A DNA stretch of 64,000 nt from an uncultured Candidatus Moduliflexus sp. (GCA_964602655.1 CAZRSF010000017.1:24116-88115); one strand, 5' to 3'; shown: positions 5,117-64,000, counted from the stretch's first letter. Notes: generated from the letters alone by a model not told the origin. A program made the numbers and translations.

Positions 5117-5398
5117 TTTGGAAAAGAAGGGGAAAACTGAACGCCTCACAGCATTAAACGCGGTCTCCGGCTTCAGGATGGCAGATGTGCCTGTATTACG
5201 GTGCGAATCGTTCATGCGTCGCCGCTGCCGAAACAACGGCTCAACATGCGCGACGCCGCGCCGTTCAAGGCCATACCGTCATCCGGTATCCGCCGGAGCG
5301 CAGGGCGTCAATTCTGTCCGGCGCAGCCGGTTGACCGAAACTTGCCCGGCCTTCCAGCCCGCCGCTGAGACGTTCAGCATCCCCTGGTAAAGGAATTT

Positions 5399-5470
5399 GG
5401 GACAGGGCTCGAACCTGTGAACTGAGCGGTATTAGCGCTCTGCTCTAACCAACTGAGCTACCCATGGTGG
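5399..5470 (-). tRNA. tRNA-like gene, probably degenerate (pseudo-tRNA)
   Basis: The reverse complement reads TAGCTCAGTTGGTTAGAGC (D-arm), GAGCG-CTAATAC-CGCTC (anticodon arm), ACAGG-TTCGAGC-CCTGT (T-arm), CCCA. Only 4 bp of acceptor stem can pair, and the anticodon loop gives the non-standard AAT anticodon. This is consistent with a decayed Met/Ile-type tRNA. Coordinates are accurate to about ±3. Confidence 0.4.
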
Positions 5471-55389: not shown

Positions 55390-56604
55390 TTAAAATTTGG
55401 TAAACATGGTACTGTCTGACGATGAATCCGAGGGTTTATTTTCCGACGGAGCTTTGAACACGTTCGCATCCGCCTTTTTATCAGCCGCCATTGACTGTAC
55501 GCTCTCTTCGGTGGACTGAATCCCCTTGACTTTCAACGAGAAATCCGCCGGACGCGTACAATTCAACACCGCTTCGTCGTACGTAATCAAATCTTGCCGG
55601 AACAAATCCAATAACGCCTGATCGAACGATTGCATCCCGTATTGCGACCGCCCCGCTTCGATATATTCCGGGATACGGATGGTTTTTTCCGGTTCGATGA
55701 TGGCCTGCTTGATAATATCGGTCGCGATCATGACTTCGACGGCGGGAACGCGACCCTTGCCGTCTTTTTTCGGGATCAAACGCATAGACAGCGAGGCTTT
55801 TAAGACTTCCGCCAGTTCCAGACGAATCTGGTTTTGCTGATAGGCCGGAAACATGGAAATAATGCGGTTCACTGTCCCCATCGCGTCCGCCGTATGCAGC
55901 GTGCTCATCACGAGATGTCCGGTTTCGGCGGCAGTGATCGCGGTTTCAATCGTCTCGCGGTCACGCATTTCTCCGACAAGGATAACGTCCGGGTCTTGTC
56001 GCAGCGCGCTGCGTAACGCTGTCGCAAACCCTTTGGTATCCGCGCCGACTTCGCGCTGATTGATTAAGGCGCGTTGATCGCGGTGCATATACTCAATCGG
56101 GTCTTCAATCGTGATGACATGCACATCGAGATTCTGATTGATATGTTGAATCATCGCGGCCAACGAGGTTGTTTTACCGCTGCCGGTGATGCCCGTCACC
56201 AGAATCAATCCGCGCGGCTCTAAGGAGAGTTGATTGAGAATCGTGGGCAAACGGAGTTCTTCGACCGTTTTGATCGTGGTCGGAATGGCGCGAAACACGA
56301 TCCCGACGCTGCCGCGCTGCAAGAACGCGTTGCAGCGAAATCGCCCTAAGCCGGGAACGCTGTGCGCAAAATCAATTTCGAAATTATCGTTAAAAATCGT
56401 TTTTTGCTTTTTGTTTAAAATCTGAGACGCAACAGCGACCGTATCCTCGCGTTGAAGCCGAGGCATTTCTTTCAAAATGTGCAAATCGCCATTGATTCGT
56501 AATACCGGAGGATTTCCGACTTTCAGATGCAAGTCCGACGCCCCACGTTCTACCATAACTTTCAAAAGGTCTTGAATATTCATACGCTCACGAGCGAATG
56601 TCAA
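55390..56604 (-). CDS. pilT: Type IV pilus retraction ATPase PilT/PilU family, with a ~45-aa low-complexity C-terminal extension
   Basis: Walker A GITGSGKTT is present with Asp/His boxes typical of PilT. No other pilus genes are adjacent. Confidence 0.85.
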   Translation of the reverse strand: MTFARERMNIQDLLKVMVERGASDLHLKVGNPPVLRINGDLHILKEMPRLQREDTVAVASQILNKKQKTIFNDNFEIDFAHSVPGLGRFRCNAFLQRGSVGIVFRAIPTTIKTVEELRLPTILNQLSLEPRGLILVTGITGSGKTTSLAAMIQHINQNLDVHVITIEDPIEYMHRDQRALINQREVGADTKGFATALRSALRQDPDVILVGEMRDRETIETAITAAETGHLVMSTLHTADAMGTVNRIISMFPAYQQNQIRLELAEVLKASLSMRLIPKKDGKGRVPAVEVMIATDIIKQAIIEPEKTIRIPEYIEAGRSQYGMQSFDQALLDLFRQDLITYDEAVLNCTRPADFSLKVKGIQSTEESVQSMAADKKADANVFKAPSENKPSDSSSDSTMFTKF

Positions 56605-56801
56605 AAGTCATCACGACTTCCATCATCGCCCCTATTCCCTTGCGATATATCTCGACAATGTTGACAGGACGTTATCACCGCCGCCGCCATAACAGATTCG
56701 TTCCTATCATGTCGAAGAATTTCTTTGCTGTCAACTGAAAAGACAGTTTTCTGAAGAAAATCAGATTTTTCTGCCGCTATCGCATTCCTCAATCAGATGT
56801 G

Positions 56802-57515
56802 TCAATGTCGGCTCTCGAAAAATGGAAGAAATAATTGTCGAATGCCCCGCAAAATCGTATCAATCCGATACGGAAAATTCATCGCATATACATCAAGCAA
56901 AATCACGGCATTCGCAGGCAAATCCGAATGGCTGGCAGACCTGAGGCGATCCGATACTGCCCGGTTCACCACATGAATATTCTTATAAATCGCCTCAAGC
57001 CCGCTTAAATCGCACGCAACATTTTTTCCCTCCTTTTTCAAAAAATATTGAGAGAGCAAATACATCGAGGCTGCCCGCCAGATCGTCTCTTCCACGTTCG
57101 CAAGCGGAAGATGGAAACGCGCCATCGGCCTGAAAAAATTGGTATGCGGACATCCGCTGTTGGCGATAATCAATCCTAATAACGAACTCACCCCTTGCTG
57201 CGCGCTGGTGGCCTGGGAAATGACGCGCTCTTTCGTAATAACGTCCATGTAGATGCGCTCATACGACAGGAGTCGGTCGAACCGGTTGACGACATGTGAA
57301 ATTTTCGCCGCATACGGACAATAGGCGTGTTCCGCTTCCGTTAACGGGCAGTTCGGACATTGATAAAACGACAGCCGCGTCCACTCCGGCAACGGCGAGG
57401 GAGACGGCATTTCTACCAGTTCCAGATTCTCGGCGAGTAATTCGAAATGAAAAATTTCCCGCGAACCGTCAGGGAGAGAAAAACGATATTCGATTGATAC
57501 CGTATCCATAGACAA
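56802..57515 (-). CDS. Hypothetical protein with a CxxC…C…C cluster (CPNCPLTEAEHAYCPY)
   Basis: The ORF is 237 aa. Apart from the Cys cluster I recognised no domain. Confidence 0.45.
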   Translation of the reverse strand: MSMDTVSIEYRFSLPDGSREIFHFELLAENLELVEMPSPSPLPEWTRLSFYQCPNCPLTEAEHAYCPYAAKISHVVNRFDRLLSYERIYMDVITKERVISQATSAQQGVSSLLGLIIANSGCPHTNFFRPMARFHLPLANVEETIWRAASMYLLSQYFLKKEGKNVACDLSGLEAIYKNIHVVNRAVSDRLRSASHSDLPANAVILLDVYAMNFPYRIDTILRGIRQLFLPFFESRH

Positions 57516-57520
57516 ACCGC

Positions 57521-58123
57521 TTAATAAGGAGAACGGGCGGAGTCCGGAGGACAGACAGACTCGCGCTGCTTCATGAAAATCGGCGGTGTGGTTGGGTCAA
57601 GGACAAAGACATCCGACCAGAAAATTGTTGGAATACTCGGTGTGGCATAGCGAATCACCGGCCCATCGTCATACAGCCCGACCGCGTCGGCAGCGATTGC
57701 GCCGCGTTGCAGCAAAACGTTCTCAAGACGAGCGTCTGAATCCAGCGTGAGCGTGAGACGTACCGGCGTATCTGCTTGAAACGCGATATGCGACGGCAGC
57801 GACGCGTCTGTTTCGTCCGCGATGCCCGAAAAGAAACCAGTGTCGCTGCTCTGCGTTTCTGTGTAGGTCAACAGATAGTCTCCCGCTTCAGGAATGTTGA
57901 CGCATAATAATTCGGCGCGCGCCTGCCACTCGAATTCCTGAGACGCGGCGTCCCCTGCCGCGAAACCGGACAGCGGATACGCGCCCCCCGATAAGGGCGA
58001 GATCGGCGCTTGTTCGTCATAATCCAGCGTGTTGCATCCCGGATTGACGGCAAGCAGCATCGCAAGCGCGATCCATTGGAATCGTTTTTGCCAAACACAG
58101 GTAGTTCTGTTGATATCGGTCAT
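57521..58123 (-). CDS. Lipoprotein, hypothetical
   Basis: The protein has a signal peptide with the lipobox NPGC. Confidence 0.5.
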   Translation of the reverse strand: MTDINRTTCVWQKRFQWIALAMLLAVNPGCNTLDYDEQAPISPLSGGAYPLSGFAAGDAASQEFEWQARAELLCVNIPEAGDYLLTYTETQSSDTGFFSGIADETDASLPSHIAFQADTPVRLTLTLDSDARLENVLLQRGAIAADAVGLYDDGPVIRYATPSIPTIFWSDVFVLDPTTPPIFMKQRESVCPPDSARSPY

Positions 58124-58200
58124 AAAGAAAGATTCTCCTCACAACAGAGCGTCTTTTGTCAATTGAAAAATGAGGGATTTCTTTCTCATAACCGTGTCAT

Positions 58201-58380
58201 ATAGGAGAAATGATGGAAGAGCGTTTACCGAATATTCATCCTGACGAAGTATTAGAAGAAGAGTTTTTACAACCGTTGCATATGTCAGCGTCGCGGTTAG
58301 CGCAGGCGATCCGGCTGCCGCAACGCCGATTCGAAAAGCAGCTTACGCGAATTGACCATTTTCAGAGGATGCCCGGCTGA
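58201..58380 (+). pseudogene. HigA-like (XRE-HTH) antitoxin gene remnant, truncated or frameshifted after ~50 aa
   Basis: The translation MEERLPNIHPDEVLEEEFLQPLHMSASRLAQAIRLPQRRFEKQL… matches the HigA N-terminal pattern (IHPGEILxEEFLxPLGLS…LA.ALGV) but ends at 59 aa without the C-terminal helices. No toxin gene is adjacent. Confidence 0.5.
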
Positions 58381-58539
58381 TTTATTTCTCCGCGTCAAGT
58401 CCCCACACGCGCCCATTATACGACACGCGGGCGACCGGCCTGCCGTTTTCGGTCAACTCCCCGCCCGACCAATTCCCGCCGCCGAGGTCGTACTGTTCGA
58501 TATAAGCGCGGCAGGCGGCGCTGATTTCTTTGAATTCGA

Positions 58540-59790
58540 TCACAATTTCTTTATATCTGGAATTCCGGCTCTGCTGTTATGGGAATATAATTTTTGCAGA
58601 AAATCGTTTTTGTATGGATCATCAAAACTACAAATAAAACTTAATACAATTTCTTTTCCTTGAAATAAAAATATATCTTTATACTCCATCTGTTTAGGTG
58701 TTTTAGGATATTTTCTCATTTCATTAAATTTATCTAATTTATCTTTGGGAAGAGATTTGGACAATTTATCTATCACCTCTTCAGAAAGATACTGTTGTAT
58801 AATGATTTTGGATTTAAAAATTGCCACAAAATCAATCAGATTATTTTCTATAGATAACGCTGGGAAAAGATGCCAGGAAGGTTCTTTGAATTCTTTAATG
58901 CTTTTCCTCGCTTCTGATTTTAAGGCTAACTCTTGATTATCGAATTGCTGCAATTCAATAAGTTCAAGATATTTCGTGCTGCCTTGTTCAATGTCGCAAG
59001 CGGGGGTGATGACAATCCCATATTTAAGAATCTTTCCAGTATCGAATCTTACAATATCGCCATTACGAATCATTGTTGCATCTGATTCGTAATAAAGCAT
59101 TTTATTCAGGATGTATCTTCGTTTTTCATCTTTCCCAATGCTCTTAGCAAAATCTCGCGCATTTCGTAAAAGTTGCTTCAAATCACCAGTAAATCTGGTA
59201 TTTTTGACCAACTCTCGATGAATAAGATTTAAGATAAAATCATTACTCCAATCTATATTTTCTTCTTCTCCAATAAGAAATTTGAGGAGAGCAGCAATAT
59301 CCTGATTTGGAAGTTGCATTAAATCGAAAAAAACTTTTTCGATTCCGCCTCTGATGACTTGACGATATACATTGCTGATTTGGGCTGTTAGCGATTGTTG
59401 AAACCATTGAGAAATTTTTTGTTCAAGGATAATTGAAGAGACATTTTCTTTAGAAATTGCAGTAATCAATGCTTTCGGGTAAGAAATTTCATCTCTTAAA
59501 ACGCTTTCATCATAATTTGAAATATGATTTGACCAAATAAAGACGGGAATAAAATATCTGTTTTGCAAATGCTTTAAAACTAAGAGACTCAACAAATGGT
59601 TCTGTTCTTCTAAATACCAGTCTAAAATAACCACATCAAAGTTGATGCCAGAATCAAGAATTGTAATCGCGTCATCTTTTGTTCCACAGCAGTGAAGAGT
59701 AATCTGGTTTTGTTGAAAGTCTTCACGTAATGTTTCTTCAAAATCAAGATAGTCATCATCAATAAGTAGCACTCGCTGTACGTTATTCAT
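58540..59790 (-). CDS. Response regulator: N-terminal REC domain fused to an uncharacterised ~300-aa C-terminal output domain
   Basis: REC hallmarks are present (VLLIDDD…, phospho-acceptor context DVVILDWYL, PVFIWS). GGAG lies 9 nt before the ATG at 59790. The start overlaps the upstream kinase stop (ATGAATAA). Confidence 0.7.
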   Translation of the reverse strand: MNNVQRVLLIDDDYLDFEETLREDFQQNQITLHCCGTKDDAITILDSGINFDVVILDWYLEEQNHLLSLLVLKHLQNRYFIPVFIWSNHISNYDESVLRDEISYPKALITAISKENVSSIILEQKISQWFQQSLTAQISNVYRQVIRGGIEKVFFDLMQLPNQDIAALLKFLIGEEENIDWSNDFILNLIHRELVKNTRFTGDLKQLLRNARDFAKSIGKDEKRRYILNKMLYYESDATMIRNGDIVRFDTGKILKYGIVITPACDIEQGSTKYLELIELQQFDNQELALKSEARKSIKEFKEPSWHLFPALSIENNLIDFVAIFKSKIIIQQYLSEEVIDKLSKSLPKDKLDKFNEMRKYPKTPKQMEYKDIFLFQGKEIVLSFICSFDDPYKNDFLQKLYSHNSRAGIPDIKKL

Positions 59791-61921
59791 TATGATTCTC
59801 CGTAAATGTGATTTTGAACGATGCTCCTTGTAATAAACCGATTTCTGGATAATCATCTTTCGATACAAGGGCAATATCCCAATTCTTCTCCTCTAAAATT
59901 TCTTTAACAATATACAAACCAAGCCCCCGTCCATCCTCAATTTTTGTAGTGAAAAACGGTTCGAAAATTTTATCTTTATACCGCGAAATCACTCCAGAAC
60001 CACTATCCGAGACAAACACAGAAGATGTTTTGGCATCAAGAATAATCCGAATACTACGTTTATCCAGTTCGGATTTACGCGACAACCAGAAAATTGCGTT
60101 ATCAATCAGATTGTTAAAAATCTGCATACAAGAGCCTTCTCGCATTTTTACGATAAAACTTTCTCCCTGCATTTCAATCTGAATAGATTCTTTTTCTAAC
60201 CAACGCTCTTGTAAAGCTATCGTATTTTCAATAATCTTCCGGATCTCTAATTCTTTTTCATTTGCAACCTTTTTAACGTAAAACATTGGACCTAAAAGAC
60301 GAATATCATTTCGTAATGCTTCTAAGGAGCTATAGAGCAAATCGAGTTCTTTTTTGATCTTCGGGGATAATGGATCAAGAAATTTTTTGAGTCTTCCTAA
60401 CGCATCAAGAGCGCCACGCACCAGACGAGCAAATTCATGCGTAAATCGTTCAGCGGCTAAACCTGTCCCTGCAAGACTAAACAATGTCTCTTTTTCCTGT
60501 TTCTGTGATTCAAAAGACTCTTTTACTTCTTCCTCAAATGTTGTGATCTCATTCACAGAATTCTCAAGAATCGCGGCAACTTTGACATTATTTTCTTTGT
60601 GACTTTCTGCAAGCTTATCTGCTAAAGTTGAAAGTTTTGTTTTCGCCTGTTGAAGAGGTTCACTATTATAATCCTGTTTTTTTTCTTTTTTCGGCCTATC
60701 TGCTAAACGCTCGTGCTCTAACACTTGTATTGTAGCAAGAACAAGCTCTCGAAATTGATGAAATGCAAGGTTTTCAATTAATCCTTCACGATTGGTCTTA
60801 TCTTTTAAAAGTTGATTTTCGATCTGGTTGACCTCAATCATGCCAATTATTGTTTTATTGTCAATCTTTCCTGTCGGATCTTGCACTCTTCTTTTATCCA
60901 ATTCAAGCCAATCATCACCTCTCTCTCCGTAAGGAAGAATTCGTATTCCATCCCTATAAATACTCACTCCACACAACTCTTCAATATCTTTTTTAATCAC
61001 CCCTGATTTTTGCAACCATTCAGGAGATTTATCATAATTATGCAAATTAACAATAAAGCTACCACAAATAAGTTCTTCTTGTATTTTGAGGGAATATTCT
61101 TTAATTAGATTAATTTGCCCATTTTTTTGAGTTGGTTTATATCCTGGAACAAAAAAATAATATTCAAACTCAAGTACACCTTGAGTATCTACTATGCCCC
61201 AAAATTTATAATGAGCTTTTTCTAAAATGTCAGAGATTTCAAGGTTTCCATATTTCAGAAATTCTTCTGGACAATCTTCAATTTTCAAAGTGACATCAAA
61301 ATCAGTTGCTCCTTTGAATGGACTTTTCATTCTTTTTAAAGTATTAGCAACACGTTTTATATCAGTCTCAGTCCAATTCGATTTCAAATGAGAAATCTCT
61401 AATAATACTCCTGATTCTTCCTGTTGAAATTCTATTAATGATCTTTCTGCATAACCTATTTCAATATCGTTCAGGTCTTTTCCTTCCACATCAAATTCTT
61501 GCCAGTCAATAGAAACTACTAACTCAATATTAGAATCTTTTACTTTAGAAATCAACGTCAGTGTATTTCCGATCTGTTGAGCTGCAAATCTTCCCACTCC
61601 CTTTTCCCCTAATGGAAGCCTACCCAGTAGTGTTCTTTCTTGTTTGGCTTTTTGCTTTTCTTTATGACCTGAGGCAGGATTCATCCACTTCGTAAGAAAA
61701 GTTTCTGTATCCATCCCACAACCATCATCTCTAATAGTGATCTTTGCGCTAGAAGTATTTAACGCAACCATACTCACCTGAACAGAGGTTGCATCAGCAT
61801 CGTAACTATTTTTAACGAGTTCTACAAGCCCAACAGAAGCGTCCTTGATCAGTTGTTCTCCAAGAATCTGGATTAATCTCGCTTTCGGGGTAAAAGCCTG
61901 TTTGCCTGTTTTCATATTCAT
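59783..61921 (-). CDS. Fusion protein: N-terminal MORC/HATPase_c_3-type GHKL ATPase, central linker, C-terminal histidine kinase (DHp-like H-box + HATPase_c)
   Basis: The N-terminus reads …LVELVKNSYDADAT…ITIRDDGCGMD… (GHKL Bergerat fold). The C-terminus has a candidate H-box (ERFTHEFARLV), an N-box (QIFNNLIDNAIFW), G1 (DSGSGV) and G2 (GRGLGLYIVKE). The start codon directly abuts the HerA stop (TAAATG). Confidence 0.8.
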   Translation of the reverse strand: MNMKTGKQAFTPKARLIQILGEQLIKDASVGLVELVKNSYDADATSVQVSMVALNTSSAKITIRDDGCGMDTETFLTKWMNPASGHKEKQKAKQERTLLGRLPLGEKGVGRFAAQQIGNTLTLISKVKDSNIELVVSIDWQEFDVEGKDLNDIEIGYAERSLIEFQQEESGVLLEISHLKSNWTETDIKRVANTLKRMKSPFKGATDFDVTLKIEDCPEEFLKYGNLEISDILEKAHYKFWGIVDTQGVLEFEYYFFVPGYKPTQKNGQINLIKEYSLKIQEELICGSFIVNLHNYDKSPEWLQKSGVIKKDIEELCGVSIYRDGIRILPYGERGDDWLELDKRRVQDPTGKIDNKTIIGMIEVNQIENQLLKDKTNREGLIENLAFHQFRELVLATIQVLEHERLADRPKKEKKQDYNSEPLQQAKTKLSTLADKLAESHKENNVKVAAILENSVNEITTFEEEVKESFESQKQEKETLFSLAGTGLAAERFTHEFARLVRGALDALGRLKKFLDPLSPKIKKELDLLYSSLEALRNDIRLLGPMFYVKKVANEKELEIRKIIENTIALQERWLEKESIQIEMQGESFIVKMREGSCMQIFNNLIDNAIFWLSRKSELDKRSIRIILDAKTSSVFVSDSGSGVISRYKDKIFEPFFTTKIEDGRGLGLYIVKEILEEKNWDIALVSKDDYPEIGLLQGASFKITFTENHNE

Positions 61922-63571
61922 TTACTCCGTATGTTCACGTTTACTTGAGCAAGGCCGCATACTTGTCATAATCGGATGCTGAAATTGAGGCGAAACAATT
62001 ATACAATTTCCTTGTCCTAAAGTAGGGACTTCATCCCAAACAGATTCATTAACGCTACCAGCCGATGTTTTTAATACTTTGAGGTTATGACTGCCGGTTG
62101 TCTGGTGAATAACTTTAGTATTACACAATTCATAAATTTCATCGGGCAGGTGTGATGGCTGTTGAGAGATAAAACAGAGTCCTAACCAACGTTTTCTTCC
62201 CCGTCGAGCGACTTCACGTAAGCGATCCAGCAGAGCTTCCATTTTGCTGGCATTTTCTCTACTGACAAAGGTATGCGCTTCTTCGATGACAATTAAGGTC
62301 GGCGGTAAATTCTCGTCATGGATTTTTTGATCAAACACCTTTCTTAGAAGATAAGCGATTACAATATTATTAACGCGGACATTATAGGAATTACTTAAAT
62401 CAATTACGCTTACTTTTCCTGGTCTGATTAATGCCGTAGGATCAAGATATTCTTCCGCTAAATCAAAGATGCCAAACCTTTTTAGGCGTTCTAATAATCT
62501 TTTAACAACAAACCATGAAGATTTATCTGCCCCATTTGCTGAATTTATATGATCATTTACAGATTTAACTACATCTTTTAACGTAAGATCAGGGTAATCC
62601 TCATCTTCAAGAAATTCATTCTCTTCGAGAGCTTTCCATTGATTAGAAGATGACTTTTTCTTTTGCGCTTTATCTCCATTACAAATCCGATCTCTCACTT
62701 CATTCCATGCACTAATAAATCGGTCTTCCTGATTTTCATTCATCCCCATAATCGCTGATAATTCATAGGGGGAAAGACTTCCAAATGGAATTCCGAATTC
62801 TATAGCATCTTTTCTTTTTGTCTCTGTTGCCAAAGGAAAATATACCTGAAAGTCATTCAACCCTTTGGCAGTAATTTTAAAACGTTCTGCAATTTTTTGA
62901 AATTCTTTGTTTTTAAGAATTTCTTCAGATGGATAATCCATTGAGATATACTCACCTTCTACATCAAGAACAATTACTGCCCAACCTGCTGAACTTGCCT
63001 CTTCAATAAGTACTTGTGAGGAATTTGTTTTTCCAGACCCAACAGTTCCGAATATTCCTGTATTTCTTGGAAGAACTGATTTTTTATTACCATCGAAATG
63101 AACTCGAATATCGCCATACCCACTAAGTTGGCCGAGATACATGTTTCCTTGCAGACGAAGCAAGTCTTCTATTTTTTCAGGCGGTAATGGAAATATAGCA
63201 GACTTTGGGCGTGGTCTCGTTTGAACGCTTGATAAATTCGCAGAAGTAAGGTTAAAAAGGCCGAGCAGTTCTACAAAACAAATACCATGATAATCTGGCA
63301 AAAATCCAATTTTACCAGCCTGAATAATTGCCGTTTTAGCAAACGCAGATTCACGGCTCACAGCATCAGGCGTATAAAAAGGGCCTTTAACAATCCGTGC
63401 CAAATAAAAATGCTCTTCTTTACTGGATTCAACAATGACATATTTCCCTCTGAAGATTTCCTTAATTTTATCAAAAGGAACTCTGATTTCCACTTCGTTA
63501 TTCGACCCGCCAGGCGCTGAATCAAAATTAACAAATCCAATTGCGTGTTCTTTTGCAAAACCTGTTTCCAT
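61922..63571 (-). CDS. herA: HerA-like FtsK/HerA-superfamily ATPase (HAS-barrel N-domain + ATPase core)
   Basis: Walker A GTVGSGKTN, Walker B LIVIEEAHTF and the HerA-type ISQQPSHLPDEIYELCNTKVIHQ motif are present. AAGGAG lies 8 nt before the ATG at 63571. Confidence 0.8.
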   Translation of the reverse strand: METGFAKEHAIGFVNFDSAPGGSNNEVEIRVPFDKIKEIFRGKYVIVESSKEEHFYLARIVKGPFYTPDAVSRESAFAKTAIIQAGKIGFLPDYHGICFVELLGLFNLTSANLSSVQTRPRPKSAIFPLPPEKIEDLLRLQGNMYLGQLSGYGDIRVHFDGNKKSVLPRNTGIFGTVGSGKTNSSQVLIEEASSAGWAVIVLDVEGEYISMDYPSEEILKNKEFQKIAERFKITAKGLNDFQVYFPLATETKRKDAIEFGIPFGSLSPYELSAIMGMNENQEDRFISAWNEVRDRICNGDKAQKKKSSSNQWKALEENEFLEDEDYPDLTLKDVVKSVNDHINSANGADKSSWFVVKRLLERLKRFGIFDLAEEYLDPTALIRPGKVSVIDLSNSYNVRVNNIVIAYLLRKVFDQKIHDENLPPTLIVIEEAHTFVSRENASKMEALLDRLREVARRGRKRWLGLCFISQQPSHLPDEIYELCNTKVIHQTTGSHNLKVLKTSAGSVNESVWDEVPTLGQGNCIIVSPQFQHPIMTSMRPCSSKREHTE

Positions 63572-63584
63572 AGTTCTTCTCCTT

Positions 63585-64000
63585 CTACTTTTGACGTAAG
63601 GAATCTTCTGGCATTTCGGAAAGAAACTCTCCTTCTTGCGCAAGTTTAAACTCAACAATATTATTAAAATCTGTTGCCTTAAACAAAGTTGAACAGAGGT
63701 TATCCGCATAATCAATTAATAACGGAAATCCTTTTTCTCTTTGAAACATTGCATCTCTGGCAATAATTCTTGCGGCCTGTTCGAAATAATCCTGATGTGC
63801 ATGGAAAACATAAGGACGCTGAGAGATTTTAATGATTCCAATAAGAATTTTAGAAGCTTCTTGCTTTAAAAAGTGAGTCATTCTAAGCAATTCTTCTTCT
63901 CGCCATTTGTCTTTTGCCATAAAATCTTCATTTCTCAATAATTCCATTCCAACATTTGTATGCTTTAATAAAAAATATTCTCCTGAATTTAATGCCATAC
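63585..64000 (-). CDS. Partial CDS (C-terminal ≥138 aa) of an unknown protein immediately upstream of the HerA-like gene; the 5' end lies outside the window
   Basis: The ORF is open to the window edge and ends 13 nt before the HerA start. I could assign no domain from the visible part. Confidence 0.5.
   Translation of the reverse strand, partial: MALNSGEYFLLKHTNVGMELLRNEDFMAKDKWREEELLRMTHFLKQEASKILIGIIKISQRPYVFHAHQDYFEQAARIIARDAMFQREKGFPLLIDYADNLCSTLFKATDFNNIVEFKLAQEGEFLSEMPEDSLRQK

Follow-up and report, generated by a model that had tools for sequence, protein, structure and literature searches.

The 64,000-nt stretch of DNA considered here (the window) originates from an uncultured Candidatus Moduliflexus sp. 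(GCA_964602655.1, CAZRSF010000017.1:24116-88115). At its right end lies an AT-rich island with genes for a HerA-family ATPase, for a GHKL ATPase fused to a histidine kinase, and for a receiver-domain protein (the regulator), preceded by a partial open reading frame (ORF). From the sequence of the window, the original prediction described them as a candidate HerA-associated two-component system of the defence type and placed a fall in GC content to about 35% near position 58550. The measured GC content is 0.513 over positions 1 to 58500 and 0.353 over positions 58545 to 64000, and the step coincides with the stop codon of the regulator gene at 58540.

Genes of the AT-rich island

The four ORFs of the island are all located on the minus strand (Table 1), and re-reading of the coordinates and junctions directly from the sequence showed that they are tightly coupled, as had been described. 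The partial ORF ends with TAG, followed by 13 nt including AAGGAG and then by the ATG of the HerA gene; the HerA stop and the kinase start together read TAAATG, and the stop of the kinase gene overlaps the start of the regulator gene in ATGAATAA. For the kinase, the likely start is the second ATG, 6 nt downstream, at position 61915 (710 aa), which is the start in homologues and in the gene call of the Logan contig L102. This contig was found by look-up with the window kinase starting at the second ATG, and the version starting at the upstream ATG gave no match. L102 is 100% identical to positions 55439 to 64000 of the window and reaches 1,669 bp further, with a GC content of 0.33 to 0.38 all the way to its end. 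It contains the full NurA-like gene (358 aa, L102:1009-2085) and, upstream of it, a gene for a C5 cytosine DNA methyltransferase (C5 methylase; PF00145, 1.2e-51), which overlaps the start of the NurA-like gene with its 3’ end and is truncated where the contig stops. Extension of the window upstream, as proposed in the original prediction, thus delivered the complete first gene and an incomplete methylase gene. Since the methylase gene lies just outside the window, we regard the unit as a five-gene cassette of the restriction-modification (R-M) type with the order 5’-C5 methylase, NurA-like, HerA, kinase, regulator-3’, and not as a free-standing signalling system.

The HerA assignment is well founded. 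The protein matches DUF87 (PF01935, 2e-24) and HerA_C (PF05872, 1.4e-11) in Pfam and the HerA models of PADLOC (up to 2.7e-26), and contains the Walker A motif GTVGSGKT, the Walker B motif IVIEEAH and the motif ISQQPS...LCNTK. The closest solved relatives of the family profile are the archaeal HerA proteins of HerA-NurA complexes (9x1l, 7e-24; 4d2i, 2e-23), and the window HerA is 65-68% identical to the orthologues of syntenic loci. An ATPase of a type IV secretion system (VirB4, TraC or a coupling protein) was considered and rejected, as the corresponding matches are short and confined to the P-loop: 43 residues for TrwB, and 9e-6 for TraC, the cutoff of which is 567 bits. The broader view that a VirB4/TraC/TraD-like ATPase of conjugation or plasmid transfer stands here by chance beside an ordinary two-component system can draw on these P-loop matches (TrwB_AAD_bind, 3.4e-7, and TraC and TraD models), but it is effectively refuted: the HerA models score far better, a partner with the NurA fold is present, type IV secretion genes are missing from the neighbourhood, and genes with overlapping junctions are kept in strict synteny in about 40 loci. 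Moreover, tblastn against plasmids revealed no homologue of the regulator and, for HerA, just distant archaeal matches, which argues against a transfer module of a plasmid or an integrative and conjugative element.

The partial ORF, previously listed as an unknown partial protein, is indeed incomplete in the window, but its product could now be identified as a nuclease with the NurA fold. Structures were predicted for this protein and for the regulator, and the protein family of the partial ORF has the RNase H-like fold of the NurA type. It has no match to NurA in Pfam, and a profile of 39 NurA-like sequences had no match among PDB sequences at E values up to 10; thus, it represents a sequence-divergent NurA-fold family. 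The invariant residues D79 (in DGT), E115, E152/R153, H169 and D315/D318 (in DYAD) lie on core elements, and the corresponding motifs DGT, SE, RERE, HG and DYAD are all present in the window's own protein. A homologue search with the 137-aa fragment of the window returned nine short fragments only. The full-length orthologue from the JGI contig L004 was used instead, and more than 200 clusters were found for this family, which has neither a Pfam nor a PADLOC model.

The kinase is a fusion of the kind previously described: an N-terminal GHKL ATPase of the paraMORC type (HATPase_c_3, 1.9e-20) is linked by a coiled coil to a complete C-terminal histidine-kinase transmitter, made up of a DHp region with a conserved H-E phospho-acceptor and a CA domain (HATPase_c, 3.7e-17). 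Its N-terminus resembles the BbrUII/HgiDII family of restriction enzymes (NF050001, 2.7e-20; PADLOC REase_II, 4.2e-14). The DHp region reaches 17.1 bits with HEF_HK, below the cutoff of 24.1 bits, and the match to Thermotoga ThkA (3a0r, 1.4e-11) brings the H-box with the phospho-acceptor His into register. Among 36 distinct members of the kinase family, both sets of ATPase motifs and the sequence LAGxGLxAERFTHEF are at least 95% conserved. Conservation includes the GHKL motifs ELxKNxYDAD, DxGxGM and GEKGVGRFA, and in the middle region the unassigned blocks RDGxRxxPYG and DKxNREG. The canonical residues of two-component systems are present in both partners, namely the DHp His and the N, G1, F and G2 boxes in the kinase and the Asp pocket (DD, D, S/T, K) in the receiver. 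Neither a transmembrane sensor nor a helix-turn-helix output was found by Pfam in the two proteins, which makes them at best an atypical, cytoplasmic two-component system.

The regulator consists of a receiver (REC) domain (residues ~1-120), a helical linker (~134-232), a beta-rich output domain (~240-405) and a disordered C-terminal tail. Its similarity to known receivers is weak (17.7 bits with PF19192, Response_reg_2, under the cutoff of 27 bits, and 15.6 bits with PF00072), and the REC fold and the receiver residues D12/D13, D57, S87 and K114 are conserved, in agreement with the predicted REC-effector. In the tail, the motif RxGxPDI is invariant, yet its predicted local distance difference test (pLDDT) score is below 50. 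In the output domain the polar residues Y233, D245, C265, D266 and R407 (GD...PxCD) are invariant throughout the superfamily, and therefore this domain is a candidate effector.

The original prediction had called for a family search with the regulator C-terminus, and this produced no credible assignment. The C-terminal ~290 residues matched no known fold or family; a profile of this part alone gave nothing credible against PDB sequences (best E value 0.2), and in Pfam there were only scattered single-member matches such as PUA (0.048). A PD-(D/E)xK, an RNase H-like, a papain-like Cys-His and a protein tyrosine phosphatase (CX5R) active site were each considered and discarded, as ExK, an invariant His and CX5R are missing. 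We regard the output domain as a candidate new enzyme fold. In an exhaustive profile search, the family profile of the regulator matched the proteins P0265 and P0294, which pass the Response_reg_2 cutoff, and the profile of the C-terminal domain without REC did so as well (1.2e-14 and 9.4e-10). The profiles A4 and A1 detect bona fide Response_reg_2 members across REC plus output domain. Thus, the window kinase and regulator, although below both Pfam cutoffs, probably represent a divergent branch of the HEF_HK/Response_reg_2 superfamily. This branch is small, with 43 clusters at E values up to 1e-30 among 1.84 billion representatives. The C-terminal profile also matches proteins of ~510 aa, such as P0270, whose locus holds only the kinase, P0270, a C5 methylase and Vsr, and is flanked by housekeeping genes.

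Conservation and variants of the cassette

A scan of species-representative genomes anchored on the regulator yielded 20 loci, all of them in metagenome-assembled genomes, from Ignavibacteria, Bacteroidota, Acidobacteriota, Desulfococcaceae and an 'uncultured proteobacterium'. A scan of metagenomes anchored on HerA yielded 77 loci, and the loci of both scans were mapped by tblastn. Synteny was counted for the 42 loci with a HerA at least 48% identical to that of the window, a few contigs being included twice because they occur in two collections. The kinase gene follows the HerA gene in all 36 loci with enough downstream sequence, and the regulator gene follows the kinase gene in 32 of 32 loci. 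Upstream of HerA, the NurA-like gene is present in 36 of 39 loci, and a C5 methylase gene stands at the place seen on L102 in 30 of the 35 syntenic loci. As this order is kept in about 40 independent loci from several phyla, it is not due to chance, and the suspected conserved co-occurrence of HerA, kinase and REC protein is borne out. On the JGI contig L004, the same four genes lie downstream of genes for a C5 methylase (DrmMII-like, 1.7e-160) and an EndoIII/HhH-GPD-like glycosylase; identity to the window is 72% for the NurA-like fragment, 68% for HerA, 60% for the kinase and 44% for the regulator, and RloB/AAA_15 and HEPN genes are neighbours.

The nuclease part of the cassette varies. In three loci, the NurA-like gene is replaced by genes for HNH_2 and for a 242-aa mini HEF_HK kinase, and HerA is shortened at its N-terminus; in the variants on L040 to L042 and L005 the first ~64 aa of HerA are absent. 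Kinase and regulator genes also occur without HerA: with HNH_2 (L001, L002 and L006), with a 1,052-aa PLD/ResIII/DUF3427 protein beside GmrSD and type I HsdR (L003), right after a C5 methylase gene (L019), or in the order C5 methylase, kinase, regulator, Vsr (L022). In L103 to L105, genes for the histidine kinase, the regulator-like protein, the C5 methylase and Vsr are inserted between housekeeping genes. The window kinase and regulator are nearest to loci of the HNH_2 type (67% and 59%), and its HerA and NurA-like proteins are nearest to HerA-type loci, which suggests shuffling of modules.

In the 18 loci with a distant HerA (24-43% identical), the NurA-like gene was kept in 12, and a kinase or regulator gene in none. 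Neighbours of these distant pairs are N6/N4 methylases, a MADS-like gene set and one short prokaryotic Argonaute (pAgo). The MADS-like operon (L053:5487-14108) encodes an N6/N4 methylase, the NurA-like protein, HerA (mad8-like), an SMC-like ATPase (mad3-like, 7.5e-19; Ppl, 1.7e-30), a HATPase_c protein of 289 aa and a TCAD9/APH kinase-like protein. The short pAgo (PADLOC pAgo, 6.6e-52; Pfam Piwi) is encoded directly upstream of a NurA-like/HerA pair that is 33% and 37% identical to that of the window (L062:5157-9074); this locus may be a pAgo system with NurA-HerA as effector.

The cassette is accompanied by repair genes for mismatches arising from deamination of 5-methylcytosine (m5C), in some loci Vsr and in others a HhH-GPD/EndoIII-like glycosylase. 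They are positioned upstream of the methylase gene or downstream of the regulator gene, and none is found downstream of the regulator gene in the window copy. The combination of a C5 methylase with such co-travelling repair genes is the mark of a system of m5C self-labelling. With regard to type II R-M systems, the methylase was found, but no classical restriction endonuclease domain; candidates for the endonuclease are the regulator output domain and NurA-HerA.

In hosts with higher GC content the cassette is poorer in GC than its flanks (0.35 vs 0.51 in the window, 0.42 vs 0.54 in L047, 0.47 vs 0.61 in L103), which agrees with the proposed defence-like setting of atypical composition. Several copies are decayed: L012 has a deletion in the NurA-like/HerA region and frameshifts in the methylase gene, the HerA gene is frameshifted in L016 and L057, and the kinase gene of L005 has an in-frame stop. 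Low GC content together with decayed copies is consistent with a mobile and costly defence module, and the AT-rich island fits a horizontally acquired five-gene cassette. These features also bear on the idea that the genes serve DNA repair, with NurA-HerA resecting ends, the kinase and regulator signalling damage, and the methylase with Vsr or the glycosylase taking care of m5C maintenance. In archaea and Deinococcus, NurA-HerA is a bona fide machine for end resection; the closest solved relatives belong to this type, and Vsr or HhH-GPD genes do co-occur with the cassette. We nevertheless consider a repair function very unlikely, given the patchy distribution across phyla, the atypical GC content and decayed copies, the swappable nuclease partner (HNH, PLD-helicase or none), the neighbourhoods with GmrSD, HsdR, RloB/AAA_15 and HEPN, the lack of Mre11/Rad50 and the methylase gene heading the operon.

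At the left junction of the island we looked for a tRNA gene, an integrase gene and flanking direct repeats and found none. A gene fragment adjoins the GC step there and may have been truncated by the island. The decayed antitoxin reported next to it corresponds to a second fragment that appears HigA-like by eye, yet this has no Pfam match. Between pilT and the island, positions 56802 to 58123 encode a DUF6901 protein (3.6e-71) and a 200-aa protein without a Pfam match; both genes are also present on L102. Far from the island, at positions 5395 to 5466, ARAGORN called a tRNA-Ile with the anticodon AAT, which is unusual for bacteria.

Table 1. Positions of the cassette genes, of flanking features and of related elements in other loci (numbers without a locus name refer to the window).
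Feature	Position	Strand	Remarks
C5 cytosine DNA methyltransferase	beyond window end (64000); L102:2-1042	-	PF00145
NurA-like nuclease, C-terminal 137 aa	63585..64000	-	RNase H-like fold; runs past window
HerA-family hexameric translocase ATPase	61922..63571	-	549 aa; DUF87, HerA_C
ParaMORC-type GHKL ATPase, coiled coil and histidine-kinase transmitter	59783..61921	-	712 aa
Receiver-domain effector (regulator)	58540..59790	-	416 aa; REC, linker, output, tail
Left boundary of the AT-rich island	58540..58560	.	GC jump at regulator stop codon
C-terminal gene fragment	58385-58558	-	ends with ...NGRVWGLDAEK; no Pfam match
Gene fragment, HigA-like N-terminus	58210-58377	+	assigned by eye
Repair genes alongside the cassette	L009:11188-11814; L004:3079-3759; L022:5211-5708		HhH-GPD/EndoIII-like glycosylase or Vsr
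HNH_2 variant cassette	L041:6220-12507 (also L040, L042, L005)		mini kinase HEF_HK + HATPase_c; full kinase and regulator downstream

Proposed mode of action and alternative explanations

Based on these observations, we propose that the five genes form a mobile defence cassette of the R-M type, which is based on methylation and worked by the relay outlined below, and assign a probability of roughly 0.6 to this reading. In functional terms, the cassette is probably a phosphorelay-gated restriction system with NurA-HerA as a DNA shredder.

In the proposed relay, the methylase, as expected from its family, would mark the host DNA. The MORC/MutL-like GHKL ATPase at the N-terminus of the kinase would sense unmethylated DNA and dimerise on ATP, and the signal would pass through the coiled coil to the DHp-CA part, leading to autophosphorylation on the invariant His of FTHEF. 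From there, Asp57 of the neighbouring REC protein could receive the phosphoryl group. The phosphorylated regulator would then activate its ~290-aa output domain with D245, C265 and D266, which we suppose to be the likeliest primary effector, either damaging DNA itself or licensing its damage. Finally, by analogy to archaeal HerA-NurA and TdpAB, the HerA hexamer and the NurA-like nuclease, for which fold and gene pairing are apparent, may load on broken or foreign DNA and degrade it processively, a slot that in other lineages is taken by HNH_2 or by a PLD-SF2-helicase nuclease. The kinase combines an N-terminal half like the GHKL head of restriction enzymes with a C-terminal transmitter, and thus the nuclease output may have been outsourced to the receiver by His-to-Asp transfer. 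It is tempting to go one step further and to speculate that a MORC-like clamp detects unmethylated DNA and causes receiver phosphorylation, and that an unseen enzymatic fold then unleashes NurA-HerA, which would make a His-Asp relay the immune trigger; we offer this most specific version tentatively, as a possibility with the odds against it. If true, it would represent a new logic by which restriction tells self from non-self, and response regulators would gain a new class of output.

Several points weigh against the proposed cassette and relay. The methylase gene is not visible in the window but only, in incomplete form, on the identical contig, and in two syntenic loci (L045 and L076) no C5 methylase gene lies inside the fetched flank. 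No nuclease fold or motif can be recognised in the output domain, and its designation as effector is purely a matter of gene-content logic. PADLOC in its 2023 version has no model for the regulator or the NurA-like protein, and the searchable literature holds no experiment on any member, including the PF19191/PF19192 pair. Information could equally flow in the other direction, with HerA-NurA as the sensor, and the kinase and regulator could equally be a mere safety switch.

The last point can be developed into an explanation of its own. Restriction would then reside wholly in NurA-HerA (in HNH or PLD proteins elsewhere), and the kinase and regulator would form a post-translational controller, comparable in purpose to the C-proteins of R-M systems, that releases the nuclease only once the genome is methylated or an infection is sensed; the output domain would be a protein-binding adaptor and not an enzyme, with HerA or the kinase as the docking partner of the disordered tail with RxGxPDI. 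An output domain without a nuclease signature is in line with such a role, the invariant tail with its low pLDDT fits a docking peptide, and the nucleases upstream of the constant kinase-regulator module are interchangeable. However, some sister loci contain only the methylase, kinase and regulator genes with or without Vsr, and no other restriction candidate, so that at least there the effector must be supplied by the kinase-regulator pair, and from this we infer that the pair carries the restriction function in the superfamily as a whole. In addition, D245, C265 and D266, all invariant, have the appearance of catalytic and not purely structural residues. On balance, we consider a pure controller function rather improbable.

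In R-M and related systems, sensing and cleavage are generally assumed to be coupled inside one complex. If the proposed phosphorelay-gated restriction is correct, a kinase-receiver relay between the MORC-like sensor and the nucleases would provide restriction with a switch that can be tuned, amplified and reversed. It would also provide the first function for the HEF_HK/Response_reg_2 superfamily, a prediction since 2021, and NurA-HerA, best known from archaeal end resection, would gain a widespread role in bacterial immunity beyond the TdpAB of thermophiles. Since the 2023 PADLOC models fail to detect the cassette, censuses of defence systems undercount it.

Comparison with known systems

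A PADLOC scan revealed no named system, so that in this check, too, the cassette did not turn out to be a system already named. The combination of methylation-based immunity with protein phosphorylation is shared with Pgl and BREX type 2, in which PglW is a kinase and PglX a methylase. In contrast to the His-Asp phosphotransfer predicted here, those systems use a Ser/Thr kinase and the phosphatase PglZ, and no proteins are homologous between them and the cassette. In a BREX-related paper, the lone mention of a histidine kinase concerns a fusion with a Schlafen RNase and not HerA.

With Sir2-HerA, DUF4297-HerA, the DndFGH/HerA-FtsK 'capture' systems and MADS (mad8), the cassette shares a HerA-family ATPase with an effector in a defence setting. 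It differs from these anti-phage systems by its NurA-like effector and by the phosphorelay partners, which are absent from them. Among the window neighbours we found no Sir2, DUF4297, DndF/G or other mad genes. Sir2-HerA and DUF4297-HerA were dismissed on this ground, as no neighbour has a Sir2 or DUF4297 domain, and so was MADS, of which the HerA-like mad8 was the only model matched (1.4e-19), the other three window proteins matching no mad model. No kinase-regulator pair of this sort is described in the MADS preprint, and histidine kinases, MORC, GHKL, receivers and NurA are all absent as terms from the Aravind-lab paper that deals with Dnd and HerA/FtsK capture.

HerA-NurA of archaea and Deinococcus and TdpAB resemble the cassette in the adjacent and coupled genes for a HerA ATPase and a nuclease with the NurA fold. 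TdpAB is the restriction arm of a system based on DNA modification, which is phosphorothioate in TdpABC and m5C here. Unlike in HerA-NurA and TdpAB, the NurA-like protein of the window is unrecognisable by sequence, Mre11/Rad50 is missing and a kinase-regulator pair is attached.

A GHKL head and an R-M context are also found in paraMORC proteins and the BbrUII/HgiDII enzymes (Iyer, Abhiman & Aravind 2008, PMC2292703; NF050001), but the C-terminal half of the window protein is a histidine-kinase transmitter and not a nuclease or helicase partner. HerA, NurA, FtsK or receivers are not mentioned in the 2008 paper (PMC2292703), and no paper in the searchable literature combines paraMORC with HerA.

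The closest relative is the pair of HEF_HK (PF19191) and Response_reg_2 (PF19192), which was described in silico by Bellieny-Rabelo, Pretorius & Moleleki 2021 (PMC8011034). It is soluble and similar to a two-component system, with a kinase composed of HATPase_c_3, HEF_HK and HATPase_c and an adjoining receiver protein without any other known domain; the two genes are linked in 91.6% of cases, are enriched near type II R-M genes, notably those for C5 methylases, Vsr and HNH_2, and are related to paraMORCs (PMC8011034). The window proteins resemble this pair in the architecture of the kinase, the solubility and the adjacent receiver protein of ~400 aa with an unassigned C-terminus, albeit with HEF_HK and Response_reg_2 scores below the cutoffs, and the association with C5 methylase, Vsr and HNH_2 genes was found here as well, the C5 methylase on L102 and Vsr or HNH_2 in sister loci. 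HerA, DUF87, FtsK and NurA are mentioned nowhere in PMC8011034, nor is HerA or NurA mentioned together with this pair elsewhere in the searchable literature. Within this literature, the original prediction is right in stating that a connection of HerA to a phosphorelay has not been described for any system. Its idea of a novel two-component system holds in part: the coupling to HerA and NurA is undescribed, but the kinase-regulator superfamily was already predicted in 2021 (PMC8011034). In summary, the cassette is a conserved variant of the predicted HEF_HK/Response_reg_2 kind with NurA-HerA added and with a divergent kinase and regulator. It is not a categorically new system; what is new in comparison to the described pair is the fixed coupling of the kinase and receiver to the NurA-like/HerA pair, which is inserted between the methylase and the kinase.

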